From Escherichia phage GeorgBuechner: 44,295 nucleotides of DNA. This document shows positions 29,490 through 38,790 of this stretch, piece by piece; within the stretch, counting starts at the first letter, position 1, and each line of letters opens with the position of its first letter. Under the pieces are notes generated by a model. That model did no database searches, was not told the origin of the DNA, and saw only the letters and a list, made by a program, of their open reading frames with translations. The translations under genes and the position numbers were made by a program. Where the stretch lies: sequence record MZ501070; one strand, given 5' to 3'.

Positions 29490-29768
29490 CTACGCGACCA
29501 ATTCAGCAACCAATAAATCACAGTCGGCTATGTTGTCGATAACGCGAACGTCAGCACCGCGGCGGGCCATTCGCTCATGTTCACGTACCTGGTGCGGCTT
29601 TGGTTTTCCTCCGGGGCGCTTCACTTCTACGAATACCACTTTGCCGTTTATGATTATAATCAGGTCGGGCGCGCCTGAGCGCCCCTCCCATATCACCTTA
29701 CGGCAGAATCCGCCAACCGCTTTCACCAGCTTCATCAGGTGACTTTGTACCTTGCCTTCTGGTGTCAT
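29490..29768 (-). CDS. VRR-NUC domain nuclease
   Basis: 92 aa; GAPDLIIIINGKVVFVEVKRPGGKPKPHQ matches the D ... E-V-K core of VRR-NUC proteins; start overlaps polymerase stop. Confidence 0.65.
   Translation of the reverse strand: MTPEGKVQSHLMKLVKAVGGFCRKVIWEGRSGAPDLIIIINGKVVFVEVKRPGGKPKPHQVREHERMARRGADVRVIDNIADCDLLVAELVA
29495..29514. promoter_or_regulatory. GCGACCAAT / GCAACCAAT motif pair at the 3' end of the VRR-NUC gene
   Basis: GCGACCAATtcaGCAACCAAT overlapping the last codons of 29490..29768. Confidence 0.35.
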
Positions 29769-32059
29769 TATTTTCTATACCTGTACATGATGTCGCCTTC
29801 TGCGGCAAGTGGGAAGCCTTTCGCCCAAATAGGCAGGTCGCACATCAGTGCGCAAAGCTCCTCGGTCGTGTAGTCGTCGGTGTCCGGCACTTCTGTGATC
29901 AATTCGTCGTGTACTGACAGGACTATTTCATAGCCCGCAGCTTCAACGCCAGGCATGGACCACGCGAGGATATCGCGACACAGCGCCTGTACGATGTTTT
30001 CCGTCAGTTTGCCGCCGTAGGTATACTGGAAGCCCCACTGGCGCGTCGTCTGATTCTCGCCCTGGTATTTGATGCGGGTGCTGGTGCGCTTCTTGCCGGT
30101 GTCTTCGTCGATCTCGGTAGTGACAGACAGCGCGATGCCGGGGTAGCTCATGATGCGCCCCGACGGCAACTCAATTTTCAACCACCAACCGGCGGCGTTC
30201 GGGTCGTCGCGCTCCTCGTCGAAGGTTGGGTCGTGCTTCGCCTTCGTGCGCACAATCTTAAGCGCTTTCCTACCGTCCTGGCGAACGTTCGCGCCAGCCC
30301 AGTATGCTTTGCCCGGATTGCGGATTGCACACAACACCGCGTCCTCAAGCTCGGCCCAAAAGGCTACCGTCTTCGGGTGGGCCTCACGCCACATACGTTT
30401 GATCGCGTCGCAGGTCAGCCAAACGTTTTTAGGCAGTATGTATGTTGGGCGCTCGTCTTTCTTGCCAGGCTTCGGCGGGCGTTTCGCTTCGTTAATGCGG
30501 GCGTACTCATAGCCGCGTTTCGCCGCCGCCCAAATGTGATCCGGGAACGTGCCTTTCATGACGTCAGCCATAGTGTAAAGGTCGAGGCCCAGGTTTTTAG
30601 CGAACTGCAAGAACGCCGCGACGCCGCCACCATAGCCCAGCCCCAATTCGCACGCCTTACCGATCTGGCGTAAGTCCTTGCGGTTAGCTTTAATGTAGTC
30701 CGGGTCCAGGCCGAACATTTTACCGGCAGTCTCGCAATAGATATCGCGACCGGCCTTAAACACCATGAGCGCGGTTTTCTCGCCCGCGATCCAGGCAAGT
30801 CCACGCCCTTCCACGTTGGAGTAGTCCGCTACGACAAACTTCTTGCCCTTAGCCGGGATAATGCACCCGCGAACGGTCGCGGCTGTTAGCTTAGATATGT
30901 CATACGCCCAGTGCGCGGTTCCGCGTAACAGGGCGTTGATGCCGTTGGTGAGCATGTGCGACCGGACCCAAAAAGAAACGTCGCTCTCGCCTTCTCGGCG
31001 CTTAATCTTCCCTTCGTGATCGTCGCTATACTCGCCGCGTGCCAGGTTTTGAGGCTGAAAACCTTTACCGGCCCAACGCAGTGTACGCTTTGCCCCACCA
31101 TACTGAATGCAACCACGGCGGCGTCCATCGGCAGACAGGCCGTTGACGAGCGGATTGTACTTAGTCGATGCCGTTGATGACGCACCGAGACGCATCTCAA
31201 TCAGCGCTTTGCCCTCGTCGGGGAAGTCCGGATCTTCCAGTAGGTCGTTTAGCGTGGATTTCTGCGCGTTGTGGATCGTGAACGCCGGGGCGATATCACG
31301 CAGGATTGGCAGGAAGTCATTTCCTGTCAGTTTACCGCCAAATCGCTCCCAGGCTTCTTCCTTCAATTCTTCCTTATGCGCCTGCACCGCTTTGATCGCG
31401 GCGTTCGCCAGGTCAACGTCCACATAGAAGCCGCGGTCGTTGATCAACTGGTCGATAAGCAGGATTTCATCTTCCTTCGGAGTATTACCCCAGTCCGGTA
31501 TGCGCCAGTAGACTTCACGCATTGCGATAATATCCAGCGCGGCATAGCGCAAAAATTTGGCCCATTCTTCAGGGTGAGTCTCGCGGGTGTAGCGGCGGAT
31601 TTTGTAGGTCTTCGGGGTAGGCTTGCAGAATCGTTTAATCAGCGCCTTGCCTGCCTTATCCTTCGCGTGCTCTGCGTCAACGCCCAGCACCTGGCACTGC
31701 ATATCGAGGCTACCCGGAAGCGCGTGGCGAAAGGCCATAATCATTGTGTCTTCGATCTGGCTTACCGGCAGGTCAATACCCCACTTCTCGCGGATAACCA
31801 GGCGGTCAAACAGGAGGCCGTTAGCCATCACTATTTTAGCCTTCTTGCGGCATACCTGGCGGAGCGCCTTGCGCAGTTCACGCGGCATTGTTGGGGATTC
31901 AGTGGCGTCCCATGTCTGCACGCGGCCCTCGTCGATGGCGTATGTGCAAATCATAATCTCGGTGGTTGGGTGCTCTGCGTAGGCGTACGCCCCTACTTTC
32001 TTCAGGTCCACCCCGCTAAATGTCTCGGTATCGAGAAACAGGCGTTCGAAGTCTTTCAT
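29768..32059 (-). CDS. DNA polymerase, family A, with N-terminal 3'-5' exonuclease domain
   Basis: 763 aa; exo motif LFLDTETFS; Pol A motifs VVADYSNVEGR, RQIGKACELGLGYGGG and LSVHDELITEV. Confidence 0.9.
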   Translation of the reverse strand: MKDFERLFLDTETFSGVDLKKVGAYAYAEHPTTEIMICTYAIDEGRVQTWDATESPTMPRELRKALRQVCRKKAKIVMANGLLFDRLVIREKWGIDLPVSQIEDTMIMAFRHALPGSLDMQCQVLGVDAEHAKDKAGKALIKRFCKPTPKTYKIRRYTRETHPEEWAKFLRYAALDIIAMREVYWRIPDWGNTPKEDEILLIDQLINDRGFYVDVDLANAAIKAVQAHKEELKEEAWERFGGKLTGNDFLPILRDIAPAFTIHNAQKSTLNDLLEDPDFPDEGKALIEMRLGASSTASTKYNPLVNGLSADGRRRGCIQYGGAKRTLRWAGKGFQPQNLARGEYSDDHEGKIKRREGESDVSFWVRSHMLTNGINALLRGTAHWAYDISKLTAATVRGCIIPAKGKKFVVADYSNVEGRGLAWIAGEKTALMVFKAGRDIYCETAGKMFGLDPDYIKANRKDLRQIGKACELGLGYGGGVAAFLQFAKNLGLDLYTMADVMKGTFPDHIWAAAKRGYEYARINEAKRPPKPGKKDERPTYILPKNVWLTCDAIKRMWREAHPKTVAFWAELEDAVLCAIRNPGKAYWAGANVRQDGRKALKIVRTKAKHDPTFDEERDDPNAAGWWLKIELPSGRIMSYPGIALSVTTEIDEDTGKKRTSTRIKYQGENQTTRQWGFQYTYGGKLTENIVQALCRDILAWSMPGVEAAGYEIVLSVHDELITEVPDTDDYTTEELCALMCDLPIWAKGFPLAAEGDIMYRYRK

Positions 32060-32226
32060 TGCTTTATCCTCACTACGGCGTCAGCGCTGCCGATCATGGA
32101 GAAGATGCCGTCAGACAGGGCAATCTCTTCGCCATTGTTGCGAATCTCGGCAACTGTGAAATATTCCCCCAGTAGCTTGGACCATACTTGCATTCCGACT
32201 TTTACTTCGCTGGCTTTAATACGCAT
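32056..32226 (-). CDS. Possible small protein (56 aa) translationally coupled to the polymerase gene
   Basis: ATG at 32224-32226 (MRIKASEVKVGMQVWSKLLGEYF...) ending in an ATGA overlap with the polymerase start; not in the ORF track. Confidence 0.3.
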   Translation of the reverse strand: MRIKASEVKVGMQVWSKLLGEYFTVAEIRNNGEEIALSDGIFSMIGSADAVVRIKQ

Positions 32227-32240
32227 TTTTCATTGTCCTA

Positions 32241-32268
32241 TTAAAAAGCCCGCATTAAGCGGGCTTGA
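32241..32268 (-). terminator. Rho-independent terminator (minus strand) after SSB-like gene
   Basis: Minus strand reads AAGCCCGC-ttaat-GCGGGCTT followed by TTTTT. Confidence 0.7.
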
Positions 32269-32284
32269 ATAGTGGGCTTTGCCC

Positions 32285-33019
32285 TTAACGGCGGCGACGT
32301 TTACGTGGTGCTTCGTCTTCGTCGTCGTCCTCATCTTCATCATCGCGTGGTTTACGACGTTTGCGAGGTTTTTCATCTTCCTCATCGTCGTCATCATCGC
32401 GGCGCTTGGACTTTTTGGACTTGCGCGGTTTGTCGTCTTCGTCTTCGTCATCGTTGTCCAGGTCTTCGTCGGAACATGAAGACCCGCCACCTCCGAAGGC
32501 TTCGCCGTCTTCACGGAATCGCAGACCCAGCAAACCCGCCCCGAGTCCCTTGCCGTTGGTATTGTTCCACGCCCAAATATCAAGGGACACGTTGCAATAA
32601 CAACCGGAGTAGATCTCCTGGCCTTCAATCTCGTCGCCGTCGATGGTCAGACCCTGTTCAGTCTGCTTCTCGCCTAGTGACGTTTGAATGATTGGCTGTT
32701 TGAACGATTTGGCGTTGATATACAACATGCCTTCGAATTCTTCGGTTACTTCATCGCGCTCGTCGCCATCGCGAACCGCACATTCCTTAGAATCCTGGGC
32801 GTAGTGGCGGTCCATCCACTTATCGGCATTCTTCTCGGATTTCAGCTTGTCGGTGAGCACTGCGCGCGCTGCCGCTTCCACTTTGTCCACCTGCGGATCT
32901 TCTTTATCGAGAAGAATCACGGCACGGTATGCCGGTTTTTGTCCATCCTGTTTAGGGGTATCACGTTCCCAGATTTTCAGGAAGCATACGCGCACATTTT
33001 TCAGGTTGACTTTAGCCAT
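32285..33019 (-). CDS. ssDNA-binding protein-like (gp2.5 / DUF2815-like) with repetitive charged C-terminal tail
   Basis: 244 aa from ATG 33017-33019 (MAKVNLKNVRVCF...) with SD GAGGAA; C-terminal ~60 aa are three acidic-block/basic-block repeats ending RKRRRR. Confidence 0.5.
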   Translation of the reverse strand: MAKVNLKNVRVCFLKIWERDTPKQDGQKPAYRAVILLDKEDPQVDKVEAAARAVLTDKLKSEKNADKWMDRHYAQDSKECAVRDGDERDEVTEEFEGMLYINAKSFKQPIIQTSLGEKQTEQGLTIDGDEIEGQEIYSGCYCNVSLDIWAWNNTNGKGLGAGLLGLRFREDGEAFGGGGSSCSDEDLDNDDEDEDDKPRKSKKSKRRDDDDDEEDEKPRKRRKPRDDEDEDDDEDEAPRKRRRR

Positions 33020-33076: not shown

Positions 33077-33100
33077 TGGTTGCCAATTTACTTGGTTGCG
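33077..33100. promoter_or_regulatory. Pair of TTGGTTGC motifs upstream of SSB-like gene
   Basis: TTGGTTGCC at 33077-33085 and TTGGTTGCG at 33092-33100. Confidence 0.45.
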
Positions 33101-33109
33101 CCTAAGCGG

Positions 33110-33352
33110 TCAAGCATTTTCGTTAAAAAGATTTCTGGTCACGTAGTTGGTCGCGTTCTCGATCCAGCTTAACGGCGGGCGGTCGATGTTCTTCTCCACC
33201 CATTCTACGGCAGCGTCGCTATAACCGTCGTCCAGCCATTTGGTTGGATGGCGAATCATCCAGGCCACCATTAAGACGCCTTGCACGCAATGCAGGATAA
33301 AGCCCAGCGCGCCGATCAAAAACATCAATAAGATTGCGAATACTTTATTCAT
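33110..33352 (-). CDS. Small membrane protein
   Basis: 80 aa; N-terminal TM segments AILLMFLIGALGFILHCVQGVLMVAWMI; SD ACGAGGA. Confidence 0.45.
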   Translation of the reverse strand: MNKVFAILLMFLIGALGFILHCVQGVLMVAWMIRHPTKWLDDGYSDAAVEWVEKNIDRPPLSWIENATNYVTRNLFNENA

Positions 33353-34778
33353 CGCTTAAGTCCTCGTCAGTAGCTTCATACCACGCAGGGCGCGGGTCGT
33401 CGATTGGTGCTAATACCGGTTTAGCCGGTGCGCGAGTGATTTTATCACACAGCTTCGCCCACACTTTCGGTTTCTCATCCTTCAATACCTTCTCGGCATC
33501 CGTAGGACTGAGCAATGTTTCTTTGTACATCACGTCGCGCTTGATTCGGGCCTTCGTGAAGATCTCAATCACTTCGCTCTCGTCCGCCCACTTGCGGATT
33601 CCTTCCTTACCGGCAACCATCTTGAGGCCCAGCGATTCGCCATCACCCGCCATTACGGCCTTGAATACCGCGGACTCGATAGCCTTGATGTGCTGGCGCA
33701 TTGCGTCAAGACCTTCATATGCCTTGCGCAGTTCCGCGGCGGTCATAGCGCCTGGGGCCGCTTCTTTCTCGCCACGCTTCGCACGTCGTGCTGCTTTGCG
33801 AGCTTCGCGGGCCATATTGCGGTCGTGATTGGCGCATTCTTCCTCTGTAGCAATACTCACGTCGTCGCCCAGGTCTTCGTCTGTTGCCGTTGGTGGGGTC
33901 ATCGTGTCGATTGCGGCCTTAGCGCGGGCGCTACACTGATCCGCAAATCGGCACCACTGGCACGCATCAACGCTGGGCCGAAAGTCGGCACGGGTTAGTC
34001 CCTTTTTGCCGCGGGCGTACGCTTCCAGGGCGGCGACAGCACGCTTGGACGCAAACTTAGCGAATATCTCCAGGGCTTCTACCGAAATATCCCACTCCGA
34101 CGCCCCGCCGCAATACGGCTGGAAGATAACCAGGCGCACGGTCGTAATGTCGTACATGGTTTGCAGCTTGCGCAGCAGGCCGAGCGCGTACAACATAATC
34201 TGTTTGTTTTCTTTCGCCTCGACCTTATGTCGTCCCGTCTTCAGGTCGCCAACAATCAGCATGTACGTGCCGTCGGTCTTCTTCATGACCATAGCCATAT
34301 CGGCAGTACCGAACGTCTTAACCCGGTTGCCGTCGATCTCGAAGCCAGAGTGTAGGACGCGGGTAAGATCGACGCGCATCTCAAGCTGAACAAACTCCGC
34401 CACTTCGAGGAGCGGTCGCCAGTGGTCGATGTATGCGTCGCACTGTTTCACCATGTCGTCGTTGACCAGCACGCCGCCTTTCGGCGCTTTCGGGTGCGCC
34501 TTTACCGGTCCCTTACCTTCGTTCTCGACGTAGCACCCTTTGTACGTCTTCGCGGTTATCAGCTTCTCCCCGGCAATGATGCGGTTGAGCACGACTTCAG
34601 ATACGGTGTGCATACTCGTACCGTTAATCGCCGCTTGCCCGGATTCGTTCGGGATATCTTTTTCCACCACCAGGGCGGCAGGGCAACCCATCCATTTTTT
34701 AGCACCGGACGGCCCGAGTAATGAATGTTCAGTATTACTACCGGATTGTGTTTTGCGCTTCGGTTTAATCGCCATCAT
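33345..34778 (-). CDS. Cas4/RecB-like PD-(D/E)xK exonuclease (DUF2800-like) with cysteine cluster
   Basis: 477 aa; DxK-type segment IVGDLKTGRHK; C-terminal cysteines in CGG...CQWCRFADQC suggest an Fe-S cluster as in Cas4-family nucleases. Confidence 0.6.
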   Translation of the reverse strand: MMAIKPKRKTQSGSNTEHSLLGPSGAKKWMGCPAALVVEKDIPNESGQAAINGTSMHTVSEVVLNRIIAGEKLITAKTYKGCYVENEGKGPVKAHPKAPKGGVLVNDDMVKQCDAYIDHWRPLLEVAEFVQLEMRVDLTRVLHSGFEIDGNRVKTFGTADMAMVMKKTDGTYMLIVGDLKTGRHKVEAKENKQIMLYALGLLRKLQTMYDITTVRLVIFQPYCGGASEWDISVEALEIFAKFASKRAVAALEAYARGKKGLTRADFRPSVDACQWCRFADQCSARAKAAIDTMTPPTATDEDLGDDVSIATEEECANHDRNMAREARKAARRAKRGEKEAAPGAMTAAELRKAYEGLDAMRQHIKAIESAVFKAVMAGDGESLGLKMVAGKEGIRKWADESEVIEIFTKARIKRDVMYKETLLSPTDAEKVLKDEKPKVWAKLCDKITRAPAKPVLAPIDDPRPAWYEATDEDLSDE

Positions 34779-36525: not shown

Positions 36526-38790
36526 ATGAGCTTAATTAAATTTGCGGTAACACGACCCGCTAAAAAAGGCGAAAAAGCCAGGGCGGAAAACTTCCAGATG
36601 ACAACCGATGAGTTTTTCGAATTTATCAATGATGCGAAAGAAATCTCCTCGGTGCATATCAACAAGACGGAAGATAAAGCCGAGTATGCGCGCCGCAAGC
36701 GTAAGGCCGATGGGATTGTGGCTTATACTCGTGACGGCTTACGTCGCAAGACCAGTGCGGTGGACCGCTCGATCCTGTTCTTCGATATAGACCGTACCGA
36801 CACCCGCACCTTACGCCGCTGCCGTAAGGCGTTCATCGACGCGGGGCTGGAACACGTATTTCACACCACTACCGGCGACCGCCACCCGCTGAAAGGCGGC
36901 ACGCGTTGCGCCCGTTTCCTGGTGCTCACCGATAGGCCTGTACCTGCTGAAGACCTGGGCCGCGTCCAGTATGCACTATTACACCAACTGGGCCTGTCAG
37001 ATGTGGACTTCGATGATTGTACGAAAGACACAAACCGCCTTATGTACCTGCCTCACCAGCAATCGGTTGTCAAGTGTCACTACGGCAAACGTGCCCGCGT
37101 CCGTCGTCTGCTTCGCCTGGCGGATAAGCTGGGAGTGGAAAAAGAGGAAGTACGACGCGAACTGACCCAGGGCGATGACGGCGTGGCGGACGGTATTCTG
37201 GATTGGTGCTTCCAGGCAGGATTCGAACCGCTGTCGTCCGGTCGTGGTTATGAAGTACCGTGCCCGAACGAACACCTGCACAGTGGTGAAGGGTCCACCG
37301 CAATCATGGTTAAGGATGGCGAGATCCGTTTCAAGTGTATGCACACCGGCAACGAGTGTTGCTCGGAACTGAACAGACACCAGCACCTGGCGCTACGTCT
37401 TATCGGGATCCCGGACCACCTGAACGTCGAACCGCACAACATGTCACGTAAGCAAATCGCCGCCATCCTCCCTGGACTGGACGACGAGGAAGTGGAATCG
37501 TGCTATGCGCATATCGTTGATGCGGTCGGAGACGGCGACGAGTACGGCGTATGTACCGACGCTGACCTGGATAACGAACCGGTCGCACTGTTCAGTAAGC
37601 ACGACCCGATCATAGAAGGCCTGGTCAACTTCAAATCGACCTGGTATATGGCTGGCGAATCGAACATCGGTAAATCGTTCTACGTGCTGGGGCAAATGGG
37701 TGCGGTTGCCGCGGGGATTCCGTTCGGCGGTGCGAAGGTCGTCCAGTCCCATTGCTTCTATTTCGACGCGGAAGGTGGCGAAGCCTCCAACCAGCGTAAG
37801 GAAGCATTGCAGATCAAATACGAGCACGACCTCGACAAGCTGCACATTATCGATCTGCAATCACGCGGCTGGGATATCACCAGCAAATCCGGCTTGCGTG
37901 AAGTTATCAGCTTCATCAACCGCACCGCTAACGGCGAACCGGTTGGCCTGGTGGCGTTCGACTCACTCAACCAGACGGTTGCGCTGCGGTCCGCCGATGC
38001 CAAACCGTTCGACGAGAACAACGCCAGCGATATGGGCGAAGTGGTCAAGGCGCTGAAGGCCATCGCGGAAAATACAGGCGGCAGTGCGGGCGTTATCCAC
38101 CACCCGGCGAAGGGTGCAAACGGCAGCAGATCTCCCCGTGGGTCCGGCGCGCTGCATGGCGCTGTCGATTCTGCGTTCTTCCTGGAGCAACCGGACGACA
38201 ATCAGCCGGGCCAATTGAACCTGTATCACGAAAAGGCACGTAACGGCATCAAGCAAGCGCCACGCGGATTCGTCCTGCTCAAGTGCAAGGTTAAGGTGGA
38301 TCTCCGCAAGTCCGAAGCGTTCGAGTCACACCAGTCCACCAGCACCGGGCCTGACTTCGGCGATGTGGTTGCCGGTTGGGACGTCAAGCCAATTGCATCC
38401 ACACCACGCGACGAGACTCTGTACCTCGTACCGGTCGCCCTGGCACCGTTCGCCATCGAACAGGCGAAGGCCGCGGGCAAAGCAGCAGTTAAGGAAGAGA
38501 ACGCAGCAGGACCGCGCAACGAAAAAGAGAAAGTGCTTTATGCGGCGCTGGAAAAACTGATGGAAGATAACCCGGACCATACCGGATTCAGCAAATCGGC
38601 AATTGTCCGCCAGGCTGGGCTTGCGAAAGGTGGCACATCGACGAAGGCAATTGACGATATGGTCGAGCGCGGAGTGCTAGGTTTTTATACCGATCCGCAC
38701 ACCGGGGCCATCTATGGGTCGTCGAATATCGTCATTAAAACGAATATACCAATCACGCTTTCTGCGACCGATGACGATTTAAAAGATTAA
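36526..38790 (+). CDS. DNA primase/helicase-like replication protein with P-loop ATPase domain
   Basis: 754 aa; Walker A GESNIGKS and Walker B-like VAFDSL in the central region; large N-terminal domain of primase type by position and size. Confidence 0.65.
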   Translation: MSLIKFAVTRPAKKGEKARAENFQMTTDEFFEFINDAKEISSVHINKTEDKAEYARRKRKADGIVAYTRDGLRRKTSAVDRSILFFDIDRTDTRTLRRCRKAFIDAGLEHVFHTTTGDRHPLKGGTRCARFLVLTDRPVPAEDLGRVQYALLHQLGLSDVDFDDCTKDTNRLMYLPHQQSVVKCHYGKRARVRRLLRLADKLGVEKEEVRRELTQGDDGVADGILDWCFQAGFEPLSSGRGYEVPCPNEHLHSGEGSTAIMVKDGEIRFKCMHTGNECCSELNRHQHLALRLIGIPDHLNVEPHNMSRKQIAAILPGLDDEEVESCYAHIVDAVGDGDEYGVCTDADLDNEPVALFSKHDPIIEGLVNFKSTWYMAGESNIGKSFYVLGQMGAVAAGIPFGGAKVVQSHCFYFDAEGGEASNQRKEALQIKYEHDLDKLHIIDLQSRGWDITSKSGLREVISFINRTANGEPVGLVAFDSLNQTVALRSADAKPFDENNASDMGEVVKALKAIAENTGGSAGVIHHPAKGANGSRSPRGSGALHGAVDSAFFLEQPDDNQPGQLNLYHEKARNGIKQAPRGFVLLKCKVKVDLRKSEAFESHQSTSTGPDFGDVVAGWDVKPIASTPRDETLYLVPVALAPFAIEQAKAAGKAAVKEENAAGPRNEKEKVLYAALEKLMEDNPDHTGFSKSAIVRQAGLAKGGTSTKAIDDMVERGVLGFYTDPHTGAIYGSSNIVIKTNIPITLSATDDDLKD

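Follow-up and report, generated by a model that had tools for sequence, protein, structure and literature searches.

The 44,295-nucleotide (nt) window analysed here is the genome of the Dhillonvirus Escherichia phage GeorgBuechner (sequence record MZ501070). On its minus strand, at positions 32285-33019, it carries an open reading frame (ORF) of 244 amino acids (aa), which is supported by the ORF list and by matches to PF10991 and phrog_112. The gene product is almost certainly the replicative SSB (binding protein for single-stranded DNA) of this phage, belonging to the Enc34/T7 gp2.5 type, and it probably anneals strands as well. The subject of this study is its C-terminal tail, in which acidic and basic blocks alternate. 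The first-pass annotation had named no strand for the gene; it reads from an ATG at 33019, preceded by a GAGG Shine-Dalgarno sequence about 9 nt further 5', to a TAA at 32285-32287, and the protein begins with MAKVNLKNVRVCF (MAKVNL...). Over residues 1-183 the protein shares 100% identity with its counterpart in Escherichia phage PaulFeyerabend (Bas15), which is annotated as putative single-stranded DNA binding protein (bas15_0044). Upstream of the SSB gene lies a DUF2800/PD-(D/E)XK nuclease (33345-34778, minus strand; DUF2800 with 225 bits) and downstream the family-A DNA polymerase PolA (29768-32059, minus strand). A SNF2 helicase gene is also among the neighbours, and an AAA_25 primase-helicase (36526-38790, plus strand) is transcribed divergently. 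The location of the SSB between the DUF2800 nuclease and PolA is kept in 11 other phage lineages and is a feature of membership in this family.

The N-terminus had initially been proposed to be of the gp2.5/DUF2815 type, and family, profile and fold searches all bear this out. It matches Pfam PF10991 (Enc34_ssDNA-bd, formerly DUF2815) over residues 3-195 with 111.1 bits (E=6e-32; cut-off 26) and phrog_112, “Gp2.5-like SSB and annealing protein”, at 2e-56. A single-sequence search matches the structures 4jg2, 4klk and Enc34 ORF6 (5odj) at ~1e-11, and a profile built from 57 homologues reaches Enc34 ORF6 with E=1e-42. In the AlphaFold2 (AF2) model the predicted local distance difference test score (pLDDT) is >90 across residues 1-175. 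Foldseek with this model retrieves 4klk (9e-13) and 5odl (5e-12), then 4jg2 and 5odj, and then T7 gp2.5 (1je5) with E=1.4e-6 and a probability of 1.00. The hallmark of T7-type SSBs is an oligonucleotide/oligosaccharide-binding (OB) fold β-barrel with a long capping helix right after strand β2 (PMC5686142). This helix is also seen in the model, which has strands at residues 2-20 and 30-38 and helices at 43-59 and 62-72. By profile alignment, not structural superposition, the DNA contacts Tyr30, Arg112 and Trp150 of Enc34 correspond to F13, K104 and W149, respectively; the position of Tyr156 is taken by Asn (with W151 adjacent) and that of Lys46 by Ala (with K28 and R32 nearby). According to the model, residues 1-175 (32495..33019, minus strand) are the OB-fold ssDNA-binding core, in agreement with Foldseek and the 5odj profile, and residues 176-244 are disordered, starting with the Gly/Ser linker GGGGSSCS (residues 176-183; 32471..32494, minus strand), within which AF2 confidence is lowest at 179-182. 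Enc34 ORF6 (5ODJ/5ODK/5ODL) shares the family, the fold, an unstructured tail opening with an acidic-aromatic motif and the gene neighbourhood of DUF2800 nuclease and PolA, at ~21-22% identity of the N-domain. T7 gp2.5 (1JE5) shares the fold class and the role of a replicative SSB in a PolA-based replisome, at an identity of only ~11-14%.

Architecture and distribution of the tail

The tail comprises the last 61 residues (nt 32288-32470). The three acidic-then-basic units ending RKRRRR that were noticed at first are confirmed by the sequence of residues 184-244 and by its charge statistics. Acidic block 1 (DEDLDNDDEDEDD, residues 184-196; 32432..32470), the counterpart of the canonical acidic tail and site of the proximal motif DEDL, is followed by basic block 1 (KPRKSKKSKRR, residues 197-207; 32399..32431), which opens with the junction motif x-P-R/K. 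Acidic block 2 (DDDDDEEDE, residues 208-216; 32372..32398), basic block 2 (KPRKRRKPR, residues 217-225; 32345..32371), acidic block 3 (DDEDEDDDEDE, residues 226-236; 32312..32344) and the terminal basic cap (APRKRRRR, residues 237-244; 32288..32311) complete the tail, all on the minus strand. Charged residues make up 52 of the 61 positions (31 acidic, 21 basic, net -10), an aromatic residue is absent, and the C-terminal residue is Arg. The charge changes its sign only five times, compared with 25.1 ± 3.4 times in composition-preserving shuffles; the minimum among 100,000 shuffles was nine, and none reached five. The charge-segregation parameter kappa is ~0.63. AF2 predicts coil (pLDDT 53-61), apart from a short four-residue helix on DEDL (184-187). 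By charged fraction, charge segregation and predicted disorder, the tail is thus a blocky polyampholyte disordered region. An ER/K single α-helix, defined by ~4+4 alternation of E and K/R, the lack of helix breakers and predicted helicity, was considered and rejected, as the blocks are 8-13 residues long, a Pro stands at each acid-to-base junction and AF2 predicts coil.

The canonical tail of the family is acidic and usually hydrophobic-ended, and the three basic blocks and the RKRRRR end depart from it. Likewise, the acidic tail with a C-terminal aromatic residue that characterizes T7 gp2.5 proper, which ends ...EADEDGDF, is not found here, and the Enc34 tail has ~29 aa, 16 of them acidic, and no basic block, in contrast to three acid/base units with a poly-Arg end. 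Since the tail is not fold-defining, PF10991 membership stands and the basic-block tail marks a family variant. The accompanying claim that gp2.5-type tails are purely acidic holds insofar as a long acidic tail is present in each of the four T7-type SSBs of solved structure (PMC5686142), but the T7 tail (..SAKASKPRDEES..) is not strictly acidic. It shows a faint acid-base-acid pattern, EDDWADEVEE...SAKASKPR followed by DEESWDEDDEESEEADEDGDF, with a K-P-R junction (10.1101/2022.08.27.505566 supplement), and the description as purely acidic is therefore approximate.

Sixteen other complete Dhillonvirus-like loci encode an SSB of 224-261 aa with 2, 3 or 4 tail units, all in frame. The 15 closest of them all end APRKRRRR, the 16th (L017) ends KPRSRRNRR, and a sister clade at ~50% identity ends RPRRRRR. 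The exact tail DNA is absent from the GenBank phages in the collection, among which the best match has 93%; most of their tails are 42-51 nt longer, equivalent to four units, and those of three isolates come close to it in length. A frameshifted tail, named in the first-pass annotation as a possible artefact, is clearly disfavoured, because the frame is kept in 16 of 16 loci and over at least 11 different lengths and because synonymous changes are in excess. Variable tail sites within groups of equal length are chiefly third codon positions, and synonymous-only versus amino-acid-changing codons amount to 15:8 and 17:5 in two such groups; the corresponding ratios of the OB domain, 42:4 and 36:7, indicate a tighter constraint there. 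Judged from these codons, the tail is real coding sequence under selection. The exceptions are P0005 (GenBank phage vB_EcoS-22664B1) and P0008, which are frameshifted into an alternative tail frame and end ...KGKAHYSSPLNAGFLIGQ; they are either sequencing errors in the repeat or natural variants without the tail. In the window, an alternative frame (32230-32628, minus strand) is open through the whole tail and beyond the SSB stop. Overlapping plus-strand ORFs (32272-32691 and others) were dismissed as by-products of composition without homologue support. Furthermore, the contig of L015 (IMGVR_UViG_3300045988_003101) ends inside the SSB tail with last codons that translate to AVSYTHLRAHET; this end resembles sequencing-adapter read-through, and assemblies seem to be broken by the repeat.

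The first search for homologues picked them by shared words, which favours similar tails, and a BLAST-type search masks the tail and covers residues 1-183 only, for which reason tails were taken from the fetched sequences. A repeat with residues 1-181 only against 1.84 billion cluster representatives gave 2113 matches, and the tail census covers 148 usable representatives among the best 150 of these. Among them, 133 (90%) lack a basic block; their tails have a median of 26 aa, end mostly in F/A/I/L/V and never end basic. The remaining 15 (10%) contain at least one basic block, with a median tail of 50 aa; a basic C-terminus is seen in 10 of them. The comparison of tail composition proposed earlier therefore supports the view of the tail as atypical, with the nuance that it is recurrent (~10%) and not unique. 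In a neighbour-joining tree of the N-domain, basic-block tails appear in eight separate groups, one of which is a six-cluster clade including the GeorgBuechner SSB. Within this clade the number of units runs from one in Jerseyvirus and Bas73 (..SVDDLEDDEDE-TPRRERRRNR) through two in Cornellvirus VSiP to 2-4 in Dhillonvirus.

The alternating tails follow common rules. At 326 acid-to-base junctions in 106 proteins, R/K/A is followed by Pro, then R/S/K, then R/K, with Pro at +2 in 79% compared with a background of 6%. The base-to-acid junctions read ..R-R-S-R before D/E, giving an overall pattern of (D/E)n-[KRA]-P-[RK]...S-R, and the junction motif is also found in the independent groups P0171, P0187 and P0208. 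Furthermore, the acidic count equals 1.21 times the basic count plus 7.1 (r = 0.90), the intercept is near the net charge of acid-only tails (-8.1 ± 3.4), and the net charges of Dhillonvirus tails with 2-4 units all lie between -3 and -10. Therefore, these sequences show a canonical acidic tail to which an extension of nearly compensated charge has been added.

The same module is present on a second type of SSB. P0106, a match of the first search, has only the tail in common with the GeorgBuechner SSB, and no sequence similarity was found between the two proteins outside it. A search with the N-domain of P0106 only gave 97 relatives, and 22 of the 28 aligned family members match Pfam PF08804 (gp32-like). 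The AF2 core of P0106 has a pLDDT >90 over roughly residues 40-240 and matches T4/RB69 gp32 (8gme/2a1k/1gpc) in Foldseek with E = 4e-8 to 1.5e-7; the family profile did not reach T4 gp32 among PDB sequences, but Pfam and the fold search did. Basic blocks occur in 84 of the 91 full-length members (median four, maximum ten), 64 of the 91 have a basic C-terminus, and Pro stands at +2 in 73% of 318 junctions. These tails start K/R-D-E-D-L-D-D, like that of the Dhillonvirus SSB, have junctions of the form (D/E)n-K/R-P-R/K and end RPRRRRR. The family resides on metagenomic phage contigs of 20-110 kb (e.g., locus L029, 10001-11233), where the P0106-type locus adjoins queuosine-pathway genes and the replisome consists of a clamp-like protein, a clamp loader, a PolA fused to uracil-DNA glycosylase, a RecA-like recombinase and a Mre11/Rad50-like nuclease. 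The gp32-family SSBs differ from the GeorgBuechner SSB in their Zn-containing fold and in a replisome of the clamp/clamp-loader/RecA-like type; T4 gp32 itself has DD[FL] motifs in its A-domain, which resemble the proximal motif, and no basic blocks. The tail module is common to two SSB folds, either by transfer or by convergence.

Searches for the tail outside these two families gave little. A tail-only search of 5.8 billion sequences found nothing at E<=1e-3, the 61-residue low-complexity query being uninformative. In a scan of IMG/VR with the back-translated cap, 13 of 15 credible proteins were PF10991 SSBs, all of one sister clade, which weakly supports an SSB specificity of the tail. The two other proteins end (E)n-x-P-RRRRR. 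One of 182 aa (L041, 3175-3207) has acid/base blocks of its own and no family assignment; the other of 409 aa (L055, 4597-4629) aligns to gp32-like proteins with an hhalign probability of 56% and may be a distant gp32-like SSB. In addition, the tail (residues 181-243) is the only part of the protein matched by phrog_15004, which has a profile length of 421 and is annotated as “single strand DNA binding protein”; this suggests that a further SSB family includes such a tail.

These data bear on two alternative explanations of the module. The first is a switch of partner, in which PolA, the helicase or a protein of the host, e.g., the acidic tip of the host SSB, would offer an acidic surface to the basic cap or blocks, and the cap would replace the acidic, hydrophobic-ended tip used by T7 gp2.5. 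The acidic tail of T7 gp2.5 competes with ssDNA and contacts polymerase and helicase. Its C-terminal F232 is essential and needed for polymerase contact, as cited in 10.64898/2026.02.22.705581. The canonical hydrophobic C-terminal residue is indeed absent here, the cap is identical in close Dhillonvirus relatives and similarly poly-Arg in the sister clade, and both module-bearing SSB families adjoin a family-A polymerase. However, a single dedicated partner is hard to reconcile with the occurrence of the module in two very different replisomes, and a defined interface with the varying number of units. Among distant PF10991 members, moreover, some half of the alternating tails end acidic (53 versus 48 basic). 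We consider such a switch improbable.

The second is a tolerated low-complexity expansion, which would arise by slippage or unequal recombination in GA-rich codons and would be functionless and near-neutral, as the charges cancel. Phages with 94-100% identical N-domains differ between two and four units, the tail is the most variable stretch of the SSB gene and less constrained than the OB domain, and the frameshifted database versions P0005 and P0008 exist. On the other hand, the frame is kept over all those lengths, the cap does not differ between close relatives, synonymous changes prevail and the junctions are highly stereotyped. The charge-compensation slope is 1.2 in two families, and the module occurs in about eight PF10991 groups and almost universally in the gp32-like family. 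Moreover, the 44-nt DNA copies of the units are only 61-80% identical within one genome, and Tandem Repeats Finder detects only 6-9-nt microrepeats and no clean DNA tandem array; at such divergence the units are old and therefore not fresh slippage products. A functionless expansion has in our view little probability, slightly less than a switch of partner.

The DEDL-type motif in SSB, nuclease and primase-helicase

The proximal motif is found throughout the family with the consensus FxDLxDDDDED (FxDL), which is DEDL in GeorgBuechner. The SSB carries it at the start of the tail as CSDEDLDND (motif at 32459-32470, minus strand). The DUF2800/PD-(D/E)XK nuclease has one copy at its extreme C-terminus, ATDEDLSDE (33348..33374, minus strand), and an internal one, TATDEDLGDD (33870-33881, minus strand), and the AAA_25 primase-helicase ends ATDDDLKD (38764..38787, plus strand). 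Among the six-frame ORFs of at least 50 aa, the pattern [S/T]-D-[D/E]-D-L occurs at these four replication-protein sites and at only one other place. In eleven other phage lineages the C-terminus of the nuclease resembles the proximal motif of its own SSB. Pairs of nuclease and SSB are VTEDDLEA and SVDDLEDD in Jerseyvirus, VTEEDLE and SVNDLEDD in Bas73, ATDSDLDD and ATDDDLDD in VSiP, QEVWDD and EAWDDEDEW in E21, AFDNMDDDL and EAWDDVDDED in MA11, NDFDDV and EEFDDL in APSE-8, LDDFDKL and VDDFDAL in a Phocaeicola phage, and EEFDKL and DDFEVI in a Vibrio phage. In the Dhillon/Jersey/Bas73/VSiP group, SSB and nuclease alike have lost the aromatic residue; in chi-like E21 and MA11 it is W in each of them. 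A permutation test over the 12 lineages gives a mean score of 19.6 for the match of the nuclease C-terminus to the SSB motif of its own phage, compared with 14.9 ± 1.1 for the motifs of other phages (p = 3e-5).

These observations would fit a docking peptide common to SSB, nuclease and some helicases, a reading to which we give roughly even chances. In the crystal of Enc34 the tail docks in the concave β-sheet groove of a neighbouring SSB, burying 842 Å2, and an equivalent tail-groove contact is present in 4JG2, 4KLK and 1JE5 (PMC5686142). This β-sheet groove of the SSB is therefore a candidate receptor of the motif. By analogy with T7, the polymerase is the other candidate. In T7, the acidic C-terminus of the helicase likewise makes use of this site on the polymerase, a parallel to the motif that SSB, nuclease and primase-helicase have in common here. 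The concept is likewise known from Escherichia coli SSB, a hub in which a disordered linker joins the OB core to a short, acidic tip for docking, and whose linker reportedly drives phase separation. E. coli SSB resembles the GeorgBuechner protein in this combination of OB core, disordered linker and shared docking peptide, but belongs to another OB family, is a tetramer, has a Gly/Gln/Pro-rich linker and carries its tip, DDDIPF, at the extreme C-terminus.

The adjacent nuclease also enters into a different explanation, in which the basic blocks would be auxiliary nucleic-acid binders that boost annealing and recombination together with the PD-(D/E)XK exonuclease, and the acidic blocks would auto-inhibit the protein off DNA. 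The annotation of phrog_112 as SSB and annealing protein agrees with this, as does the DUF2800/PD-(D/E)XK nuclease that adjoins the SSB in every lineage examined. No unit is more conserved than the poly-Arg cap at the end, and Enc34 ORF6 without its acidic tail gains dsDNA binding, so that tail charge tunes specificity (PMC5686142). However, strong DNA binding is not expected of a tail with a net charge of -10, in which the acidic block next to each basic one carries more charge, and the 90% of the family without basic blocks are presumably annealing-competent, too. We consider such auxiliary binding by the basic blocks unlikely.

Defence systems and expression signals of the SSB gene

The SSB of Dhillonviruses is known as a protein that is sensed by, or linked to, bacterial defence systems. 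The phages SECphi4, SECphi6 and SECphi18 are Dhillonviruses, and their SSB (“Gp2.5 family”) is sufficient to trigger Retron-Eco8 toxicity (10.1101/2022.08.27.505566). Escapers of Retron-Eco8 carry T56P, D25_P29dup or promoter changes, and escapers of ShosTA carry T21P, F95L, F106V or N152H in the SSB (10.1101/2022.08.27.505566); all these sites (T21, D25-P29, T56, F95, F106 and N152) are identical in the GeorgBuechner SSB. In vivo, Retron-Eco8 is activated by the nearly identical SECphi4 SSB, which reportedly binds the multicopy single-stranded DNA (msDNA) of the retron; this speaks, indirectly, for a preference for ssDNA. A Dhillonvirus SSB also triggers type III Sir2-HerA (PMC13434337). The SECphi proteins have an essentially identical OB domain and a tail of the same type, which differs in unit number and sequence: SECphi4 has three units and ends EKPRKRRRR, SECphi18 has four and ends APRKRRRR. 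The published work does not discuss the tail architecture, and its figure shows residues 1-186 and omits the “flexible C-terminal residues” (10.1101/2022.08.27.505566). As the SSB is sensed and its tail hypervariable, the repeats might be a decoy or an evasion surface varied in an arms race. However, the reported escape mutations are all confined to the OB domain or promoter and spare the tail, and deletion of the T7 C-tail leaves Retron-Eco8 activation unaffected (PMC13402713). Defence evasion is very improbable; among the alternatives, the data speak clearly against this one and a frameshift artefact only.

Directly upstream of the SSB gene lies a σ70-like promoter-like site, TTGACC-17-TAAATT (33085..33113, minus strand). 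Between the nuclease and the SSB there is also an 80-aa ORF on the minus strand, whose stop codon (33110-33112) is inside the -35 hexamer of this site. By coordinate arithmetic, two SECphi18 escapes from Retron-Eco8 fall on the hexamers: the one described as “hypothetical protein (80aa) stop-loss 81R” at 33112 (-35), and the “intergenic” one at ~33085 (-10). From these positions, both upstream escapes are probably promoter-down mutations of the SSB gene and not protein effects. Just 3' of the SSB stop lies a terminator-like hairpin with a U run (AAGCCCGC-UUAAU-GCGGGCUU; 32240..32266, minus strand), with an RNA fold of -24.6 kcal/mol (z = -4.5). The ORF of 56 aa between SSB and PolA (32056-32226, minus strand) is identical to a SECphi18 protein of unknown function, which together with its upstream intergenic region, i.e., the SSB terminator region, is an escape locus (Table S2 of 10.1101/2022.08.27.505566).

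Proposed role and significance of the tail

We propose that the tail consists of two parts, a proximal one of DEDL and acidic run that would be the canonical SSB tail, and a distal one of basic-acidic units and cap. The shared docking peptide would bring nuclease and helicase either to ssDNA coated with SSB or to a partner that they have in common, such as PolA. Because the distal add-on is nearly charge-compensated, variable in copy number and punctuated by prolines, it would act by bulk electrostatics and not by a fixed structure. Its basic blocks could pair with acidic blocks of neighbouring SSBs or touch the DNA backbone. Such contacts would lend the SSB multivalent cooperativity or self-association on ssDNA, and the add-on might modulate access to the docking motif while the net negative charge stays canonical. 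This role of the extension as an electrostatic zipper is possible, but we put it forward only tentatively. Taken as a whole, with replicative SSB, docking motif and electrostatic extension, the proposal is the best explanation, and in our estimation it is evenly balanced between right and wrong.

Several points weigh against it. AF2 shows the tail only as low-confidence coil, and no Retron-Eco8 or ShosTA escape mutation falls into it. Tolerated slippage could equally account for the varying copy number and the recurrent origin, and the junction statistics come mostly from the word-biased search set. The co-variation of primase/helicase and SSB is not significant overall (p = 0.07), being clear in some lineages and absent in others, and the 12 lineages are related and represent only 2-3 independent co-changes. 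Tail contacts in crystals may be unlike the behaviour in solution, and at the P0106-type locus no neighbour with a DEDL-type motif was found. A further-reaching and unlikely version of the proposal would regard the (basic-acidic)n module as a portable SSB accessory, moved or convergent, which through multivalent pairing of charge blocks would make SSB-ssDNA self-associate into a condensate-like replication/recombination compartment, with DEDL as address tag of the clients and the number of units tuning the material properties of the compartment.

The protein family and this orthologue are already known. What seems to be new is the tail architecture with its regularities, its occurrence on a second SSB fold and the motif that co-varies; the literature searched contained no account of SSB tails with alternating charges. 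In the textbook view an SSB is an OB core with an acidic, partner-recruiting tail, and the GeorgBuechner tail departs from this in a regular manner, being nearly charge-compensated, copy-variable and basic at its end. Because it recurs in ~10% of the PF10991 clusters and in nearly all gp32-like members, the tail is probably a functional solution and not an oddity. Since the SSB already serves as a laboratory reagent, namely as trigger of Retron-Eco8 and type III Sir2-HerA and in ShosTA-related escape, in studies that omit the tail, experiments with truncated tails or altered unit numbers are feasible at once in BASEL or SECphi phages. Finally, the co-varying motif offers a testable map of how the widespread, poorly studied DUF2800-DUF2815-PolA module holds together.

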